A stretch of DNA of 32,000 bases from Candidatus Harpocratesius repetitus (GCA_021498095.1 JAIZWK010000001.1:3900001-3932000); one strand, 5' to 3'; positions 1-7,921 are shown, numbered from the stretch's first letter. The notes: generated from the letters alone by a model not told the origin. Numbers and translations: made by a program.

Positions 1-545
1 AAATTACAAGTCATAATAACAGGGTAACGGGAAATAGATATAATTTTCTTAACTGCAGCGGCACCTCCTCTATCATTTCTTCCATGAATACCGTCTACTT
101 CATCAATTAAGATCAATTTTCCCTTTACTTTCTGTGATGTAAAAGTCAATAAATTTGTATTTCTTACAGTTTCTCGCAATTTTTCATTAACTGCTTCTTC
201 TGTTCGCACATCTGATGCATTCAATTCAATAACGCTTAAATTATAATCACGAGCGAGAGCATATACAATGGTTGTTTTTCCAACTCCAGGAGGTCCAATT
301 AACATCGCAGCAGTTTTATTAGCAAGTTTACTTCTTATTGATTTAAATTTCAAATCTATTTTTCTATCAATTGAACCAGAAGAAGTTGCTCTTAGCTGTT
401 TTTTGATTTCACGATACTTTTTCTGTAATTCTAAAAAATCATCTAAGAATTTTTGCAGTTTAGAAATTATATCTTCGAAACCAACCATATCTTTAGTTGT
501 TTGAGGACGATACTTTTCAACCCAAGGGATATTATTTTCTTCCAT
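1..545 (-). CDS. rfcL: Replication factor C large subunit (5' part; runs off the left edge of the window)
   Basis: Not in the ORF track. Manual translation from ATG 545 (in-frame GTG at 557): MEENNIPWVEKYRP...AAMLIGPPGVGKTTIVYALARDYNLSVIELNASDVR...KLILIDEVDGIHGRNDRGG...YPVIMTCN. RFC box II, Walker A, NASD motif and the large-subunit DEVDG...DRGG Walker B are all present. Confidence 0.93.
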   Translation of the reverse strand, partial: MEENNIPWVEKYRPQTTKDMVGFEDIISKLQKFLDDFLELQKKYREIKKQLRATSSGSIDRKIDLKFKSIRSKLANKTAAMLIGPPGVGKTTIVYALARDYNLSVIELNASDVRTEEAVNEKLRETVRNTNLLTFTSQKVKGKLILIDEVDGIHGRNDRGGAAAVKKIISISRYPVIMTCN

Positions 546-565
546 TTTTTGTGTCACTTTTTTTA

Positions 566-1648
566 TTAATTAAAATTCATCTTTCCAATCATATTCATTT
601 GTATTAATAGATTTAATAATTGGATTTCGTCACTTTGAGAATCTAATGCACCAAAATCAGTATTGGCAATCAATTCTAAATACAATGCTTGAACATGCGG
701 TTCTAATGGCATATCTGCAATTCTCTTACTCATCTCAAATAAAATTTCATCTTTAGAAAGATTTTGATTCTGAAAGATAGAACGCACTTTAGTTCGGAGA
801 GATTTTACATCACCTTGCATAGTTAAGGAAATCAAATTTAAAATTCCTCTATCTGTAATCATAGAATAAACCTTTGAAAGAGAATCTAGAGAAAGTTCAT
901 TATATTTAATTTTAGTAATTTGAAGTAGATCAAGTGCTTTCCCAATGTTTTTCTCACTCATATGTCGAATATATTCGATCACATCTAATTTAATCGGTAT
1001 TTTTTCTTGATCACAAATAGTTTTAATCAATTTATTAAATTTAAAATCAGGAAGATATGGAACTAACAACAATTGACAACGGGAAACAATAGGGTCAATA
1101 ATGCTTGAGATCCGATCGGTTATTAAGATCATACGGCAATTACGTGAATATCTTTCCATAATTCTTCTAAATCCTTGTTGTTCGACATCTAAATCATGAA
1201 AGTTTTTAATGATTAAGATCTTAAAGGGTGATTTTCCGAATTTTTTTGTGCTTACAAATGGTCGAACGCGAATTTGGATAAAAGGACGAAAGTTTTTTTG
1301 TGATCCTGCACCTGAGCCAAGCATTTTTGATGAGACTCGCCCCTGTCGTTTTGATTCATTACGTTCTGCTTTCCCAATTGGATCATCTGCATATAAGATT
1401 TTGCTGTTCATTGTAAATTCTTTTCCCAGAATTTCTCGAGCAATTAACTCTCCAATCATTGTTTTTCCACTTCCTGGAGGACCAATTAACATTAAATGAG
1501 GAAAATTGTTAGATTGGATAAAACCCTTTAATTGTTCATATAATTTTGGGAATAAGTTCTTAATTTCACTTAGTTTTTTTGGGCGATATTTAATTCTCCA
1601 TATTGGACTATCTTCTTCAGACATTATATTAATTTTTGATGAACTCAA
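566..1648 (-). CDS. rfcS: Second RFC small-subunit paralog with degenerate Walker B (probably ATPase-dead)
   Basis: IWRIKYRP box, Walker A GPPGSGKT, RRIME, IIDPIVSRC (arginine finger) and C-terminal DEIQL are present. The Walker B position reads KILIIKNFHDL instead of KFIILDEADL. Start is either TTG 1648, overlapping the upstream TGA, or ATG 1624. Confidence 0.85.
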   Translation of the reverse strand: MSSSKINIMSEEDSPIWRIKYRPKKLSEIKNLFPKLYEQLKGFIQSNNFPHLMLIGPPGSGKTMIGELIAREILGKEFTMNSKILYADDPIGKAERNESKRQGRVSSKMLGSGAGSQKNFRPFIQIRVRPFVSTKKFGKSPFKILIIKNFHDLDVEQQGFRRIMERYSRNCRMILITDRISSIIDPIVSRCQLLLVPYLPDFKFNKLIKTICDQEKIPIKLDVIEYIRHMSEKNIGKALDLLQITKIKYNELSLDSLSKVYSMITDRGILNLISLTMQGDVKSLRTKVRSIFQNQNLSKDEILFEMSKRIADMPLEPHVQALYLELIANTDFGALDSQSDEIQLLNLLIQMNMIGKMNFN

Positions 1649-2649
1649 TTTATTCCCTCCAATAAAATCATTAATTCTGAAATGAAACCATCAATTTGTA
1701 TTGTAGGATCAGCAGATAATGTCAAACGAAAATCAAATTCTCCGATTTTTGAAATAATCTCTTCTTTTTTGTATTTATCAAATTTTTGTTTTAAGATCCA
1801 ACTTAAAGTTTGCCGAAATAATCCTCGACTTGAATAACTTGGATTCTCTGCTAGAATATTCTTAACTTTTATAATATCTTCTTGATATAAAGCAGTAGAA
1901 AATTCTTTAAATGTTTTTAGAGGAAGAAATCCAGAAATTTGATACACAATATCAGGATGTAAAAATACTCTTTTTTTACTTTGATTTTCTTCAAAAACTA
2001 AAGATAATGCCATTTGAAGTAAATTAATTGCCTGCCGCATATCACCTTGAGAAATATAAAATATTGCATCTTTTACTTCATCGTTTATAAAAATATGCTC
2101 ATTTTCACATATTTTATCAATTTGCTTAGAGAAGAAATGAAAAGGAAGGGGAAAAAAGCGAAATATTGCACATCTTGATAGAACAGGATCAATTATATTT
2201 TCAATATAATTACACATAAAAATGAATTTTACATTTGAAGGCGCCATTTCTATAATCCGGCGAAATGCACCTTGCATTGCCTTTGGAATCAAATCTGCTT
2301 CATCCAGTATTATAAATTTATATTTAGGCTGGAACATACCGGTATGATTGACAAAATTTTTAATTTCATCTCTAGTATCCATTCTTACATTATCACTAGC
2401 ATTTCGTTCTAAAATTGTATCAGCCAATATTTTATCAGTTCCTAAAACATCATGAATCAATGCATATGCAGTAGAAGTTTTTCCTGTACCTGCTGGCCCT
2501 GCAAAAATAAGATGAGGAATGCTGTCTTTTTCAATAAATTTCTGTAAGGTTTGAACAGTCATGGATTGACTAGCGATTTCTGATAATGTTCGAGGTCTAT
2601 ATTTCTCAACCCAAGGTAAGTCCGCATTAAACTCGATTTGATCGTTCAT
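1645..2649 (-). CDS. rfcS: Replication factor C small subunit (canonical)
   Basis: PWVEKYRP, GPAGTGKT, NASD, ILDEAD, SRC and GDMRQAIN motifs are intact. ATG 2649 is preferred over TTG 2673. Confidence 0.95.
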   Translation of the reverse strand: MNDQIEFNADLPWVEKYRPRTLSEIASQSMTVQTLQKFIEKDSIPHLIFAGPAGTGKTSTAYALIHDVLGTDKILADTILERNASDNVRMDTRDEIKNFVNHTGMFQPKYKFIILDEADLIPKAMQGAFRRIIEMAPSNVKFIFMCNYIENIIDPVLSRCAIFRFFPLPFHFFSKQIDKICENEHIFINDEVKDAIFYISQGDMRQAINLLQMALSLVFEENQSKKRVFLHPDIVYQISGFLPLKTFKEFSTALYQEDIIKVKNILAENPSYSSRGLFRQTLSWILKQKFDKYKKEEIISKIGEFDFRLTLSADPTIQIDGFISELMILLEGIN

Positions 2650-2794
2650 TATAATTTTTCCTTTTAATTTCAAATAAATTTCAAAAATTTCGCTAATAAT
2701 ATTTTTAGGGCTTTATTATAAAAAAAGACCTCACTGATCTTTTAATAAATTTAAGCTCAATTTCTTAAATATTTTGGATTATCATGGGTAATAA

Positions 2795-2827: not shown

Positions 2828-2859
2828 TTTTATATATATATTGAATATATATTGAATAT
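2828..2859 (+). promoter_or_regulatory. Probable TATA box with tandem ATTGAATAT repeats upstream of and overlapping the vapB start
   Basis: TTTTATATA at 2828-2836 lies about 25 bp before ATG 2858, which is leaderless geometry. ATTGAATAT occurs at 2840-2848 and 2851-2859. Confidence 0.45.
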
Positions 2860-3106
2860 GGCATCTCATCAAATATCTATTCGTGATGATGTTTATAAGA
2901 AATTAAATAAATTAAAGATGAAAAATGAAAGTTTTTCAGATTTACTTGATCGGTTATCACAGCAAGTAAAGGGATCATGGCATGCGTTAGAACAATTAAA
3001 TGGCATAGCAGGGCCGGATGAACTCAATTTTGAGACAATCATTAGTGAAAATCGAAAAGAATTAGAAAAATTGTTTAAAAATAGACTTGGAATAAGAGAT
3101 TTGTGA
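2858..3106 (+). CDS. vapB: Archaeal VapB-type antitoxin (DUF217-like)
   Basis: QISIRDDVYKKLNKLKMKNESFSDLLDRL matches the archaeal antitoxin pattern TISI-D-Y-L-K-ESFSD-R. It lies 4 bp upstream of a PIN gene. Confidence 0.85.
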   Translation: MASHQISIRDDVYKKLNKLKMKNESFSDLLDRLSQQVKGSWHALEQLNGIAGPDELNFETIISENRKELEKLFKNRLGIRDL

Positions 3107-3110
3107 TTGC

Positions 3111-3536
3111 ATGATAATTTTAGATACAAATGTTATAATAAAAATAATTCATAATAAGCTAAATTTGGAAAAATTAAAGGGAAAAGTTCCCGAAGAAGAA
3201 ATTTTTGTGATCTCTTCGGTTTCACTTTATGAATTATATTTTGGTTTATACCAATTAAAATTTAATAAAAGAATTTCCTTAAATCAAACGAAATGGGATA
3301 AAGAATTACAAAGTATTCATTTAATTGAAGAAAAATTAGATATTTTACCATTTAATTCAAAATCTGCTGAAAATAGTGCTAAGTTGTTCAATGATTTACG
3401 TTTTCGAGGGACAATGATTGAAATATTTGACTGTATGATTGCTGGAATTATGAAAGCATTTGGGATTAAAAAAATACTCACCACAAATATTAAGCACTTT
3501 AAAATAATTCCTGGTATAGAAATTATTGAAATTTGA
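3111..3536 (+). CDS. vapC: PIN-domain ribonuclease toxin VapC
   Basis: IILDTNVII, SLYELYFG, IFDCMIAG and ILTTNIKHF PIN motifs. Confidence 0.92.
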   Translation: MIILDTNVIIKIIHNKLNLEKLKGKVPEEEIFVISSVSLYELYFGLYQLKFNKRISLNQTKWDKELQSIHLIEEKLDILPFNSKSAENSAKLFNDLRFRGTMIEIFDCMIAGIMKAFGIKKILTTNIKHFKIIPGIEIIEI

Positions 3537-3812
3537 TTTCATAGATTGTTGAATACATGATTTTATTCAGAAAATTGCGTGATAAATTTTTTTTGTACTA
3601 TTGCTCTTGAAGGATAAAAGCTAATTAAGATAAAGTAAAATTAAAAATGGGAAAACAAAATTTAATTTAATGATAAAAAATCTTAAAAATCTAAACTTTG
3701 AAAAGAATTCAACCAGATTATTAAGAATAATTGAAAGATTATCTGGTAATTTAAATAATGTTTGATATCAAATAAGTTATTTTTTTTAATTGTTATTGCT
3801 ATATATTATATC

Positions 3813-4139
3813 ATGAGTAATCAAATAAATTTTCGTTTAAAATCAGATGAATTATTTATAGTAAAAAAACTCGCAAAAAAAAAGGGAATATCCTTAGCAG
3901 AATATGCAAGAAAGGCATTAGAAGAAAAGGTCAAGCCAGAAAGAGTAGATTTAGCATTTAGGTTATTAATAGAAGGTCATGTTGGATTTAAAGGTGCATG
4001 GAAAATCTCTGGCTTGGAATATAATAAGTTTTTGACAGAATGGGCAAAAAGAGGTGCAGTTGAAGAAATTCCAGAAGAAATTGTTGAAAAAAATATAGAA
4101 AAATCTAAAAAATTTGATTGGGAATCCTTATTAAAATAA
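3813..4139 (+). CDS. Putative antitoxin (ribbon-helix-helix N-terminus plus UPF0175-like HTH)
   Basis: QINFRL...LAKKKGISLAEYARKAL is RHH-like, followed by GAWKISGLEYNKFLTEWAKRG. It lies directly upstream of a PIN gene. ATG 3813 is preferred over TTG 3762. Confidence 0.7.
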   Translation: MSNQINFRLKSDELFIVKKLAKKKGISLAEYARKALEEKVKPERVDLAFRLLIEGHVGFKGAWKISGLEYNKFLTEWAKRGAVEEIPEEIVEKNIEKSKKFDWESLLK

Positions 4140-4155
4140 ATTCATCTTGATTTTC

Positions 4156-4656
4156 ATGAATCTACTTTATATAGATACTTGTGCTCTTAGAGATATAATT
4201 TCTTTAAGGGAGAATATAAATGTGAATTTCTTTCCTTTATTATCTCAATTTCGGTTAGGAATTACAAAAGAATTAGAAAAGGAATATAAAAATTTTAAAA
4301 TTTATAACGATATACCCTTAAATTTTGATTTTTTTGTTAATATTAGAAAAAATGAAAGATTAAATTACTTAAAAAAATATAACTTAGAAGAATTTGATCT
4401 TGCAGATCAAGATTTGTTTATTATTGCAAAAAGAGATAATTCTACAATTATAACTAATGATCGGCCTCTCTTTTTACAGTGTTATCAACAACATTTAAAT
4501 GGTTACTACCTCTATGATTTTTTAATTGCCATGGTTTATCAAGGGAGAATTAAAAAGAATTTGTTGTATAAATGCAACAAACATTGGACTAAAATATCTA
4601 GATTTCCAAAATCAACATTAGATAGAATAAAAAGAGAATTCCACGCAATTTCATAG
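4156..4656 (+). CDS. PIN-domain protein (second toxin, DUF3368-like)
   Basis: LYIDTCAL, GITKELEKE, DLADQDL and IITNDRPL carry the acidic PIN motifs. Confidence 0.75.
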   Translation: MNLLYIDTCALRDIISLRENINVNFFPLLSQFRLGITKELEKEYKNFKIYNDIPLNFDFFVNIRKNERLNYLKKYNLEEFDLADQDLFIIAKRDNSTIITNDRPLFLQCYQQHLNGYYLYDFLIAMVYQGRIKKNLLYKCNKHWTKISRFPKSTLDRIKREFHAIS

Positions 4657-4729: not shown

Positions 4730-7700
4730 TCAAAAATCATATTTATCGTTTAAAACTTGTGCGTTTATAACCTGTGCATACTGCTCTGAAATTGTCATTG
4801 CCATGATATAAATCCGTTCATCTACTGGGAGAAGAAGTGATTTTGCACCTTCTGGAATATCAAGTGTTATAGAAAACAGATATCCAAATTGATAAGGTAG
4901 ATCGTTGCCATTTTTATGAGTATGGAGGGAGTACCATTCTAGACGGTCCCGATTAATGAACCCTGGTTTTATCCCTATGCACTTATTTAACCAAATATAA
5001 TCTCGTTTAAGTTTCAGATGATGTTTTGGAGTTTTTGACCATATTCGAGTATCCCACTGACCTATAAAACCTGTCATGGGAGATATATGGCAATTTTCAT
5101 ATCCTATCGATTCTCCATTTACTTCATACCATCTAAAAGAAGTCTGACATTCTTCTGTTGAACCTAATAGAATTGAGAGAGTATTGAAGCCATTCGGTAT
5201 TGAAATTGTTTGACCTTTACATTGGAGTGCATTTTTTTCTTTATTTGATGAAAGAGAATAGGAGATAAGTCCTGCTCCAATTTTTGGTGGTGTTAACTCC
5301 GCGGGGAAAATGCCTTTTAGATCACCATTTTTTCCAATCAGTTTACAGTTATAATCTAATTTTAGGGGTTTTTGCTTAATTTTCAAAGATTTCTCCGATT
5401 GTTCAAGAATAATGATAAAGGAACGGATTCCATTTGCCCTAAATTTGACTGAAAATTTGTTTTTATTAAATGATAAGTCATCAATAGGTTCTTCCAATCC
5501 ATTTACTTCCATTACACTTCTAATGGGGGCACAAAATAATATTTCTGCATCGCAATCCTTTCCATAGCGCTCATATACCCGAATCAAGATACCTTCACCC
5601 TTTTCTGGCTTCTTTACTGCTAAAATACCCAATTGAGCATTTGAAATCTTAAAAAGAGAGAATTCTTCTGTTATTTTTGAAAGATTTGGAAGTTTGTTAC
5701 TGATTAAAAATGATCGAATAGGTTGATTAAAACGCCTTGCGATAGAATCAGTTTTTTTGTAATCTCCTTCATGAGCATAGATTCCATATCTAATAGTATG
5801 TTCTCCCCAATCTTGGAACTTTTGATCTCGAAAACCTTGGATTAAGCCGATGCCAGGAGTATAGAGCAAAGTTATTCGAATAGTCTCATCTGTAGGATGG
5901 TCATAACCATATTTAGAATCTTCAACTAGGGAGATTCCCCAATTATCTTCACTCATGTCCACCCATAAACGGGATGGCATTTCAAATAATTTTGCATGGT
6001 TTTTTCCACGAGTCATCCTGCATGTTTCCCAATTGAAGGTAACAATCGGTTTGGTTTGATTTACAGTTAGTGCAAGCTTTAGGGAGCAACCGCTCTCCCT
6101 CCAATGTATTCTTTCTGTAAATTCCACTATTTCGGATTCTTCGCTGAGACTAATTTCTTTAATAAAAATTGAAGGTTGATGCAAAGTAGAGCTTTGATAT
6201 TTGGTAATGATCTGAATTATACAGCGTAGAGAGCCTTGTTCGATAATAGAAACAGATCCACCACCTTCAATTCGGGCGAATGGCTTCCTTTTTCTATCTT
6301 TCCAATCCATATTCCATGCAGGAAACAGTTTAGGATGTTCTTTTTGCAATTCATATGCCATAGGTGCTTTTAGTAGTTCTTTTTCCAATTTTTTATGGAA
6401 AATCGATCCAATTTTACCATCTTTTGAAATTTTCACCTGAAAATATGAATTTTCCATAATATAGTAGTCATTTTCTATTTTTAGCTTTTCAGTAGCAGAT
6501 GTTTTTGATTTTCTTTCACTCAACCAATTTGAATGAGAAATACTAAATTTAGTCCAACTAACTGGTTTTAGCTTAGGAATAAAGGTCAATTGGTATTTAC
6601 CATCTGAACAATTTTTTATTTGAGCAGGATATGAATTTCCATCTGAATCTGTAATTGTTATCTTAGTATCTTGATTTTCATCCCATTTAACAAGAGAAAT
6701 ATTAACTGCATCTTTTCGGTTTTCTGGCAGAGGATTGAAAAGAAGAATTTCACCTTCTCCCTTAATAAATGGTGCAATGCTTGCAGCAGAATCATGTAAG
6801 ATTGAGGTCCAAGTGGAAAGGGCAACAACTTCATCATTTTGGGAGAATTCATATGCTGTAGGAGTGGAGGTACCTGGAAGAATATCATGCATTTGGCTCG
6901 CAATTGTTCGGAACCAAGCCGATTGAATTTTTTCGCTTGGATATTTTGTGTTTAACGCCCAATAAGCAGTTACAGCGGCCATTTCAGCAGCAAAAGCCAT
7001 TTGTTCATTTTTTCGGTTCCAACGTTTCATTATTGCTGCAGAAGTCAAAGATCCAGCACTATGATTTACCAAGAGTAAATCACCTTCATACCGATCCATT
7101 TTCTTTTTTTCAATTTGAGTAATCTCACGGAAAAATTGATCAGGAGAACCTTGTCTTACAATTAATTCGCTTTTCTTCTCTAAAGAATGGTTGATACTGG
7201 AAATTGCCCTTCTAACTGAACCCTCTGTGGGAGCACCTCCAATATCACCTACACCATAATATTGAAAGGATTTCCAAATCCCGTTATTCTTTCCCAGTTT
7301 ACGTAGTCTTCTAAGACGTCTCCAACTTCTTTGAACCTTAGGAAAAACTCGGGAAATATACGCGCCAGGATTAAGAGCACTGATAAGTTCACTACCGTCT
7401 GGTCCTTTCCAAATTCCAATTTCAAATGGAATCCCTACAGCTGAATTCCAAGTAAGTTTTTGGCTGGAAAATCCATGGATTCCACAATGAGTTAAAACCG
7501 TCGGCATATTTGCAGGAAAACCGAAACAGTCAGGAATCATGTAATCTCGCGAACTTTTCCCAAATTCTTCTTTAAACCATTGATCTCCGTAAAGAATATT
7601 CCGAATCATCGATTCTACTGAAGGAATTAAAGCATCTGTTTCATCTAAACATGTTCCTGCAATGTTCCATCGTTCTTCTTTAATTAATTCTTTTATTTCT

Positions 7701-7921
7701 TCAAATAGTTCTGGATAATATTCTTTCATCATGGCGTAGCGCAAAGCACCCGTAAAATTAAAGGTATACATAGGATATTTGCTAAAAAGATATATATTTC
7801 TTTCAAGGGTGTTTTTTATATATTTTTTAATGGTTGTGGGATATTCCCAGCGCCACTGTGTGTCTAAATGTGAATAGGGGATAAGAAAAATTTCTTTATG
7901 CTTCACATCAAGATTTTTCAT
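4730..7921 (-). CDS. Glycoside hydrolase family 38 alpha-mannosidase
   Basis: PYSHLDTQWRW (Zn-binding HxD), PDCFGF (nucleophile Asp) and QMHDILPGT motifs. 1063 aa with no N-terminal hydrophobic segment. Confidence 0.93.
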   Translation of the reverse strand: MKNLDVKHKEIFLIPYSHLDTQWRWEYPTTIKKYIKNTLERNIYLFSKYPMYTFNFTGALRYAMMKEYYPELFEEIKELIKEERWNIAGTCLDETDALIPSVESMIRNILYGDQWFKEEFGKSSRDYMIPDCFGFPANMPTVLTHCGIHGFSSQKLTWNSAVGIPFEIGIWKGPDGSELISALNPGAYISRVFPKVQRSWRRLRRLRKLGKNNGIWKSFQYYGVGDIGGAPTEGSVRRAISSINHSLEKKSELIVRQGSPDQFFREITQIEKKKMDRYEGDLLLVNHSAGSLTSAAIMKRWNRKNEQMAFAAEMAAVTAYWALNTKYPSEKIQSAWFRTIASQMHDILPGTSTPTAYEFSQNDEVVALSTWTSILHDSAASIAPFIKGEGEILLFNPLPENRKDAVNISLVKWDENQDTKITITDSDGNSYPAQIKNCSDGKYQLTFIPKLKPVSWTKFSISHSNWLSERKSKTSATEKLKIENDYYIMENSYFQVKISKDGKIGSIFHKKLEKELLKAPMAYELQKEHPKLFPAWNMDWKDRKRKPFARIEGGGSVSIIEQGSLRCIIQIITKYQSSTLHQPSIFIKEISLSEESEIVEFTERIHWRESGCSLKLALTVNQTKPIVTFNWETCRMTRGKNHAKLFEMPSRLWVDMSEDNWGISLVEDSKYGYDHPTDETIRITLLYTPGIGLIQGFRDQKFQDWGEHTIRYGIYAHEGDYKKTDSIARRFNQPIRSFLISNKLPNLSKITEEFSLFKISNAQLGILAVKKPEKGEGILIRVYERYGKDCDAEILFCAPIRSVMEVNGLEEPIDDLSFNKNKFSVKFRANGIRSFIIILEQSEKSLKIKQKPLKLDYNCKLIGKNGDLKGIFPAELTPPKIGAGLISYSLSSNKEKNALQCKGQTISIPNGFNTLSILLGSTEECQTSFRWYEVNGESIGYENCHISPMTGFIGQWDTRIWSKTPKHHLKLKRDYIWLNKCIGIKPGFINRDRLEWYSLHTHKNGNDLPYQFGYLFSITLDIPEGAKSLLLPVDERIYIMAMTISEQYAQVINAQVLNDKYDF

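Follow-up and report, generated by a model that had tools for sequence, protein, structure and literature searches.

The clamp loader of Methanosarcina acetivorans, replication factor C (RFC), consists of three RFCS1, one RFCS2 and one RFCL, with RFCS2 occupying a terminal place in the chain of small subunits (PMC2880001). In the human RFC, the E subunit is inactive and holds ADP, apparently in a structural role, and its E-plug, a beta-hairpin, extends the Rossmann sheet (bioRxiv 10.1101/2020.02.18.953257). For Lokiarchaeales, a report in Nat Ecol Evol of October 2025 described an rfcS3-rfcS2-rfcL operon with rfcS1 elsewhere, an RfcL without arginine finger, and an RfcS2 with Walker A and arginine finger and without Walker B, 'akin to the eukaryotic RfcE', with an insertion at the E-plug site predicted to differ structurally from the E-plug (PMC12680538). 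The four RFC proteins of Candidatus Harpocratesius repetitus copurified in that work through tandem His-RfcL and then Strep-RfcS1 purification, AlphaFold3 placed RfcS2 at the RfcE position in both 1:2:1:1 and 1:1:2:1 stoichiometries, the phylogeny made RfcS2 a sister of RfcE, and topology tests rejected trees in which the eukaryotic RFC subunits fall outside the Asgard clade (PMC12680538). We analyzed a 32,000-nucleotide stretch of the Ca. Harpocratesius repetitus genome (GCA_021498095.1 JAIZWK010000001.1:3900001-3932000; hereafter the window, from whose first letter positions are counted) that contains this operon. We conclude with good confidence that the operon encodes the Lokiarchaeales RFC and that RfcS2 is its structural and regulatory non-hydrolysing subunit, most likely at position E.

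A loader with a dead subunit is therefore already known, and the window matches the published description in every point: the same four genes, the operon, the RfcS2 motifs, the site of the insertion and the fingerless RfcL. What our analysis adds is that neither sequence nor fold singles out RfcE as the relative of RfcS2, that kinship with the Methanosarcina RFCS2 is not rejected, and that an interface between RfcL and RfcS2 is predicted.

The source genome is one contig of 4,361,485 bp with about 30% G+C, and homologues of the window proteins carry the names Promethearchaeota or Lokiarchaeota. Three open reading frames (ORFs), all on the minus strand, follow one another in the order rfcS3, rfcS2 and rfcL, and Pfam and NCBIfam assign all three products to RFC, two as small subunits and one as the large subunit. 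The first gene, rfcS3 (1645..2673, minus), encodes a divergent, catalytically complete small subunit (P0002) of 342 amino acids from a TTG at 2673 or 334 amino acids from an in-frame ATG at 2649, the end coordinate given in the earlier note; the ATG, which has an AGGA about 12 nt upstream, appears the likelier start. The second, rfcS2 (566..1648, minus), has a TTG start and encodes a non-catalytic small subunit of 360 amino acids (P0001). Within a TTGA, the rfcS3 stop codon TGA (1647-1645) overlaps the rfcS2 start codon TTG (1648-1646), and a GGAGGG box lies at 1660-1655, 7 nt upstream of the TTG. Given the overlap and this Shine-Dalgarno box, the operon genes are probably translationally coupled. 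From the rfcS2 stop codon (568-566), a gap of 8 nt or 20 nt leads to rfcL, depending on whether rfcL starts at a GTG at 557 or an ATG at 545. The window holds the 5' part of rfcL (3..557, minus; P0003, residues 1-181 counted from the ATG at 545), whose reading frame leaves the window and extends 825 nt past its start to give a full product of 457 amino acids (full ORF L052:1676-3046, minus). An earlier note made from the DNA alone had described an rfcS, an rfcS paralogue and rfcL on one strand with a TTGA overlap and a gap of 8-20 nt, and both its coordinates and its description of this layout are correct.

Alignment of RfcS2 with RfcS3 by BLASTP (30% identity) pairs FIILDEAD of RfcS3 with ILIIKNFH of RfcS2. 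Walker A of RfcS2 is kept as GPPGSGKT (residues 56-63; 1460..1483, minus), as is the SRC arginine finger (residues 189-191; 1076..1084, minus), and KNFH (residues 148-151; 1196..1207, minus) stands where DEAD is expected, as the earlier note had read. The sensor 1 Asn is also gone (CN to TD), as is the sensor 2 Arg (GDMR to KNIG). Compared with the RFCS chains of A. fulgidus and P. furiosus, RfcS2 further carries a basic insertion of 33 residues (KAERNESKRQGR; residues 90-122; 1283..1381, minus) in place of the 5-residue ERGI loop of canonical RfcS. In an AlphaFold2 model of RfcS2 with a mean predicted local distance difference test score (pLDDT) of 83, the insertion begins with a helix (93-102) and continues as a loop of low confidence, with pLDDT of 58-59 across residues 101-120.

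These features are conserved well beyond the window. Our search of 201 Asgard genomes recovered RfcS2 at 186 bits or more in 42 of the 44 genomes of the window's order, with no RfcS2 match above 121 bits in the remaining 157, and the rfcS3-rfcS2-rfcL order was present in all 31 genomes of the order examined. In a maximum-likelihood tree, a 24-row RfcS2 clade with support of 100 takes in a protein of Ca. Lokiarchaeum ossiferum. The DE pair is absent from every one of about 120 RfcS2 homologues, down to 38% identity; in the nearest group the Walker B remnant is KNFH, in a group of 348-amino-acid proteins it is KNFE or KNFD, and a profile search of 1.8 billion representatives added RDFH, TDFH, HDFD and others. 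GxxGxGK[T/S] is preserved in nearly all homologues. Among 25 diverse homologues aligned, G56, G61, K62, S189, R190 and C191 are invariant, as are P90 and the G-S-x-x-G core of the insertion (G111, S112, G115). Ratios of nonsynonymous to synonymous substitution (dN/dS; NG86) against a congener were 0.089 for rfcS2, 0.035 for rfcS1, 0.186 for rfcS3 and 0.115 for rfcL; with dS near saturation these ratios are rough, yet all are far below 1. Motif loss, motif retention, synteny and purifying selection are thus direct observations of the present analysis.

The same observations bear on whether rfcS2 is decaying, or is a paralogue broken in this strain only, as the loss of four catalytic motifs might suggest. 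The frame, however, is intact and the motif pattern is common to the roughly 120 homologues, while the low dN/dS, the invariant Walker A, SRC and insertion core, and the fixed synteny likewise speak against decay, leaving this explanation with a negligible probability. A pseudogene reading of rfcS2 was rejected for its conserved motifs, invariant residues and low dN/dS. An apparent C-terminal truncation of RfcS2 in a congener (G089) proved to be nothing more than a string of N in that assembly. The earlier note had proposed conservation of the Walker B loss under purifying selection as a check and named close orthologues with DEAD or a dN/dS near 1 as signs of decay; we looked for both and found neither, and the loss is indeed conserved, with a dN/dS of about 0.09.

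The operon does not by itself describe the loader, as rfcS1 lies outside the window and makes this a four-gene system. A search of the genome with RfcS3 identified one more RFC small-subunit gene, rfcS1 (1436888-1437856), 2.46 Mb from the operon, whose 323-residue product contains GPAGTGKT, VLDEAD, SRT and GDLR. Scores against archaeal RFCS proteins were 351.6 bits for RfcS1 (P. furiosus), 209.6 for RfcS3 (A. fulgidus) and 133.4 for RfcS2, and by these sequence features rfcS1 is the canonical archaeal RfcS copy of the genome. Canonical rfcS1 is nearly universal among the Asgard genomes searched and is kept in the operon-bearing genomes of the order, and it is the most constrained of the four RFC genes. 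'Three-component', as the earlier note had it, is true of the operon and wrong for the system.

Nor is the first gene of the operon an ordinary rfcS, as had been assumed. RfcS3 has all the expected motifs (GPAGTGKT, ILDEAD, sensor 1 CN, SRC and GDMR). With the RfcS1 of the same genome it shares 37% identity; it scores about 174 bits to yeast Rfc3 and human RFC5, and clusters in the maximum-likelihood tree with operon-linked paralogues of the same order (support 99). Its score against NF001679 (PRK00440), the NCBIfam model of canonical archaeal RfcS, is 264.6 bits and that of RfcS2 is 195.7 bits in two stretches, both under the cut-off of 303. By scores and clade, RfcS3 is a divergent paralogue. 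In public records, RfcS2 homologues are mostly labelled 'AAA family ATPase' or 'hypothetical protein'. Since RfcS3 falls below the NCBIfam cut-off and the names of RfcS2 homologues are vague, this RFC system is under-called by annotation pipelines.

The genome has a single rfcL and a single PCNA gene. RfcL contains GPPGVGKT and LIDEVDG and lacks the SRC arginine finger, with no SR motif past sensor 1 in the alignment. At about residues 25-80, between the WVEKYRP box and Walker A, RfcL has an extra charged segment of about 40 residues that is likely helical; this segment is found in most of the order and is much shorter in genus g2.

With four genes in hand, we considered how the pentamer may be composed. 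The earlier note had proposed a 1:3:1 loader; taken literally, this would be made by the operon alone, with one RfcL, three RfcS3 and one RfcS2 and no part for RfcS1. The adjacency and probable translational coupling of the three genes, their fixed order in 31 of 31 genomes, and the exactly corresponding 3:1:1 design of the Methanosarcina RFC (PMC2880001) are all in keeping with such a loader. Against it, rfcS1 is kept in operon-bearing genomes under the strongest constraint of the four (dN/dS 0.035), there is just one rfcL whose product could partner RfcS1, and the published His-RfcL/Strep-RfcS1 pull-down recovers all four proteins (PMC12680538). We therefore abandon the 1:3:1 proposal as very improbable. 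Two alternative loaders that share RfcL and RfcS2, one using RfcS1 and the other RfcS3, are slightly less improbable but still unlikely. Such an arrangement would divide labour through the small subunits, where eukaryotes use alternative large subunits; two complete, active paralogues are stable across the order while evolving at very different rates, and a 2:1 as well as a 1:2 ratio is tolerated in the published AlphaFold3 models (PMC12680538). The tandem RfcL/RfcS1 pull-down nevertheless brings RfcS3 along, so that, in E. coli at least, the complexes are mixed (PMC12680538), and with one PCNA there is no second clamp for a second loader to serve.

For the loader we propose the following arrangement. 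RfcS2 would be unable to hydrolyse ATP, having lost both Walker B acids (Asp and Glu) along with the Asn of sensor 1 and the Arg of sensor 2, and by analogy with the ADP held by the eukaryotic E subunit its P-loop probably holds nucleotide structurally. RfcS2 would most likely stand last (E) in the pentamer, beside the gap, where its arginine finger would complete the ATP site of the neighboring active small subunit, while its collar and AAA+ domains would touch the collar and C-terminal segment of RfcL at position A. The conserved basic insertion may reach into the DNA chamber in the centre, where eukaryotes have the E-plug. RfcS3 and canonical RfcS1 would fill the three active positions, and the loader would act on the single PCNA. 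In the logic of clamp loaders, an arginine finger is not required of the position A subunit, and at position E there is no neighbor that could complete the subunit's own site. The motif pattern fits this logic, since RfcL is fingerless and RfcS2, though devoid of catalytic residues, retains both finger and P-loop. The placement at E, the structural binding of nucleotide, the part played by the insertion and the subunit ratio are inferences.

Structure prediction of the RfcL-RfcS2 pair is consistent with this arrangement. The predicted complex reached an interface score (ipSAE) of 0.74, against 0.01 for the best of three controls; among 80 solved complexes 58 attained that mark, as did 2 of 110 mismatched pairs. 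At least 35% of the contacts agreed between runs, and the pLDDT of the partners was at least 77. In the predicted interface, RfcL 306-345 and 408-439 lie against the RfcS2 collar (333-356) and the face of its AAA+ domain (residues 14-19, 63-67, 84-90 and 148-149), and residues 148-149 of the Walker B remnant contact the C-terminal segment of RfcL. An F-P-R-Y segment at the RfcL C terminus is the part predicted to meet the dead site of RfcS2. The prediction supports binding without demonstrating it; the two collars pair and RfcL 408-439 runs along the AAA+ face of RfcS2, which corresponds to E-to-A geometry. Taken with the motifs, the low dN/dS and the published copurification, the predicted contact with RfcL sustains the suggestion of a conserved second small subunit that is not catalytic, keeps its arginine finger and is of Rfc5/RfcE-like type.

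In several respects RfcS2 resembles the eukaryotic E subunit (yeast Rfc5, human RFC3/p38): both have an inactive site with the P-loop kept and an SRC finger, which RfcS2 too would offer to its neighbor, both carry extra residues between the Walker A and B motifs, which in RfcS2 may likewise point towards the DNA chamber, and contact with the C-terminal part of the large subunit, seen in the E subunit, is predicted for RfcS2. The two loaders differ in the number of active partners, as the Loki loader has two kinds of active partner subunit and the eukaryotic loader has three. Bacterial delta-prime (HolB) is also a non-hydrolysing end subunit of a pentamer that donates an arginine finger, but it has lost nucleotide binding and arose separately in the bacterial gamma/tau family. 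RfcS2 scores 29.8 bits against TIGR00678 (holB), for which the cut-off is 180.6, and the likeness to delta-prime is one of analogy only.

A number of results weigh against RfcS2 as a fully dead, E-type subunit. Yeast Rfc5 and human RFC3 score only 66-70 bits to RfcS2, where archaeal RFCS reaches 133 and Rfc2-4 also score above E. No E chain appears among the 50 best Foldseek matches of RfcS2, a search that does not discriminate between RFC small subunits, since every one of them gave a TM-score of about 0.5-0.6. The insertion is modelled as a helix and a disordered loop, unlike the beta-hairpin of the E-plug, and a search of the PDB with the insertion region (RfcS2 40-160) gave no RfcE match spanning the insertion. 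The high score of the RfcL-RfcS2 interface may itself reflect the model's memory of solved RFC structures. Moreover, the Walker B remnant is not devoid of acidic residues everywhere: the RfcS2 of a sister genus (genome G165, L048:2992-4032, minus) reads DDFH instead of KNFH, and two representative clusters from the RfcS2 profile search read REFH, with one acidic residue retained. One acidic residue thus survives in some lineages. The same G165 protein has GKM for GKT, having lost the P-loop Thr while one Walker B acid is present. In broader searches, the top 150 representatives from the RfcS2 profile were either archaeal or without a name, and a feature search of the ESM Atlas returned archaeal RFC clusters only and no eukaryotic cluster. 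A search for related loci in the contig collection with RfcS2 found no relative.

We next compared RfcS2 with euryarchaeal RFCS2. RfcS2 scores 164.7 bits (164.3 in the genome search) to NF009067 (PRK12402), the model for RFC small subunit 2 in Methanosarcinales and Halobacteria, whose curated cut-off is 317 and whose true members score 319-426. The Methanosarcinaceae RFCS2 (P0203), at 426 bits to this model, aligns end to end with RfcS2. The euryarchaeal proteins of Methanosarcinales and Halobacteria share with RfcS2 an insertion at the same site, of 36-38 residues, and have lost the catalytic Glu (IDNAE). They are only 26% identical to RfcS2, however, the Methanosarcina form retains the Walker B Asp, and the Methanosarcina loader has three components where the Loki loader has four. 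In a free maximum-likelihood search, with a tree that left out eukaryotic sequences (no Rfc2-5), the Loki RfcS2 clade (support 100) was separate from euryarchaeal RFCS2. A constrained tree joining the two was better by 5 log-likelihood units and was not rejected by the approximately unbiased (AU) test (p-AU 0.596); this outcome may be due to long-branch attraction, as both groups form long branches. Insertion-bearing RfcS paralogues also occur in Helarchaeota. Asgard family f7 (L041-L045, L049, L050; P0207, P0177) has a separate RfcS paralogue of about 375 amino acids, in which some 60 residues are inserted at this site; it keeps an acidic Walker B (LDESD/RDAD), has no RFC neighbors and forms a clade of its own.

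RfcS2 may resemble RfcE by convergence, and the Loki copy perhaps has a common ancestor with the RFCS2 found in Methanosarcinales and Halobacteria. Neither sequence nor fold makes RfcE the nearest of the solved relatives, and the insertion has no sequence likeness to the E-plug, from which PMC12680538 also predicts a different structure. The end-to-end alignment, the similar insertion and the IDNAE Walker B of the Methanosarcinaceae RFCS2 point the same way, as do the joint clade that the AU test did not reject and the separate insertion-bearing paralogues in Helarchaeota and family f7. The published phylogeny, on the other hand, relates RfcS2 to RfcE and is accompanied by topology tests (PMC12680538), and our free tree, without eukaryotic sequences, keeps the two archaeal clades apart, with long-branch attraction a possible source of the AU result. 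On this evidence we regard convergence as possible but doubtful. We offer, equally tentatively, the idea that Loki RfcS2 and euryarchaeal RFCS2 go back to one dead terminal subunit that bore an insertion and passed from lineage to lineage.

Other features of the region were also recorded. A candidate promoter for rfcS3-rfcS2-rfcL, read from the sequence, is an A/T-rich TATA-like box (TTTTTTTATAATAAAG; 2711..2726, minus) about 65-75 nt upstream of the rfcS3 ATG. Two antisense ORFs on the plus strand, 268-504 (78 amino acids) and 1209-1499 (96 amino acids), lie across from the parts of rfcL and rfcS2 that encode the P-loop; FPxPGGPI, which is GPPGxGK read in reverse, occurs in each, and we consider them shadow frames and not genes. 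Directly upstream of the RFC operon and divergent from it is a VapBC pair (2852-3536, plus), in which a VapB-type antitoxin (84 amino acids, PF02697) and a PIN-domain toxin (141 amino acids, PF01850) are separated by 4 nt. At 3762-4656 (plus), a ribbon-helix-helix-like protein (125 amino acids; NikA-like/DUF6290) is followed after 7 nt by a 169-residue protein without a Pfam match, and this gene pair may be a second toxin-antitoxin pair. A GH38 alpha-mannosidase of 1063 amino acids with all four family domains is encoded at 4730-7921 (minus).

The window adds one more member to the published group of Lokiarchaeales loaders. The link of RfcS2 to RfcE comes solely from phylogeny, and euryarchaeal RFCS2 is a credible alternative relative. 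If Loki RfcS2 and euryarchaeal RFCS2 do share one origin, the E-type subunit would be older and more widespread in archaea than Lokiarchaeales, and the eukaryotic RfcE lineage, or its look-alike, would trace to an older invention and not to a Loki-specific one. The step by which a loader with four copies of one small subunit became the eukaryotic heteropentamer is a textbook example of molecular machines gaining parts, and an archaeon with a dead, plug-bearing, E-type subunit and two active paralogues opens that step to experiment.

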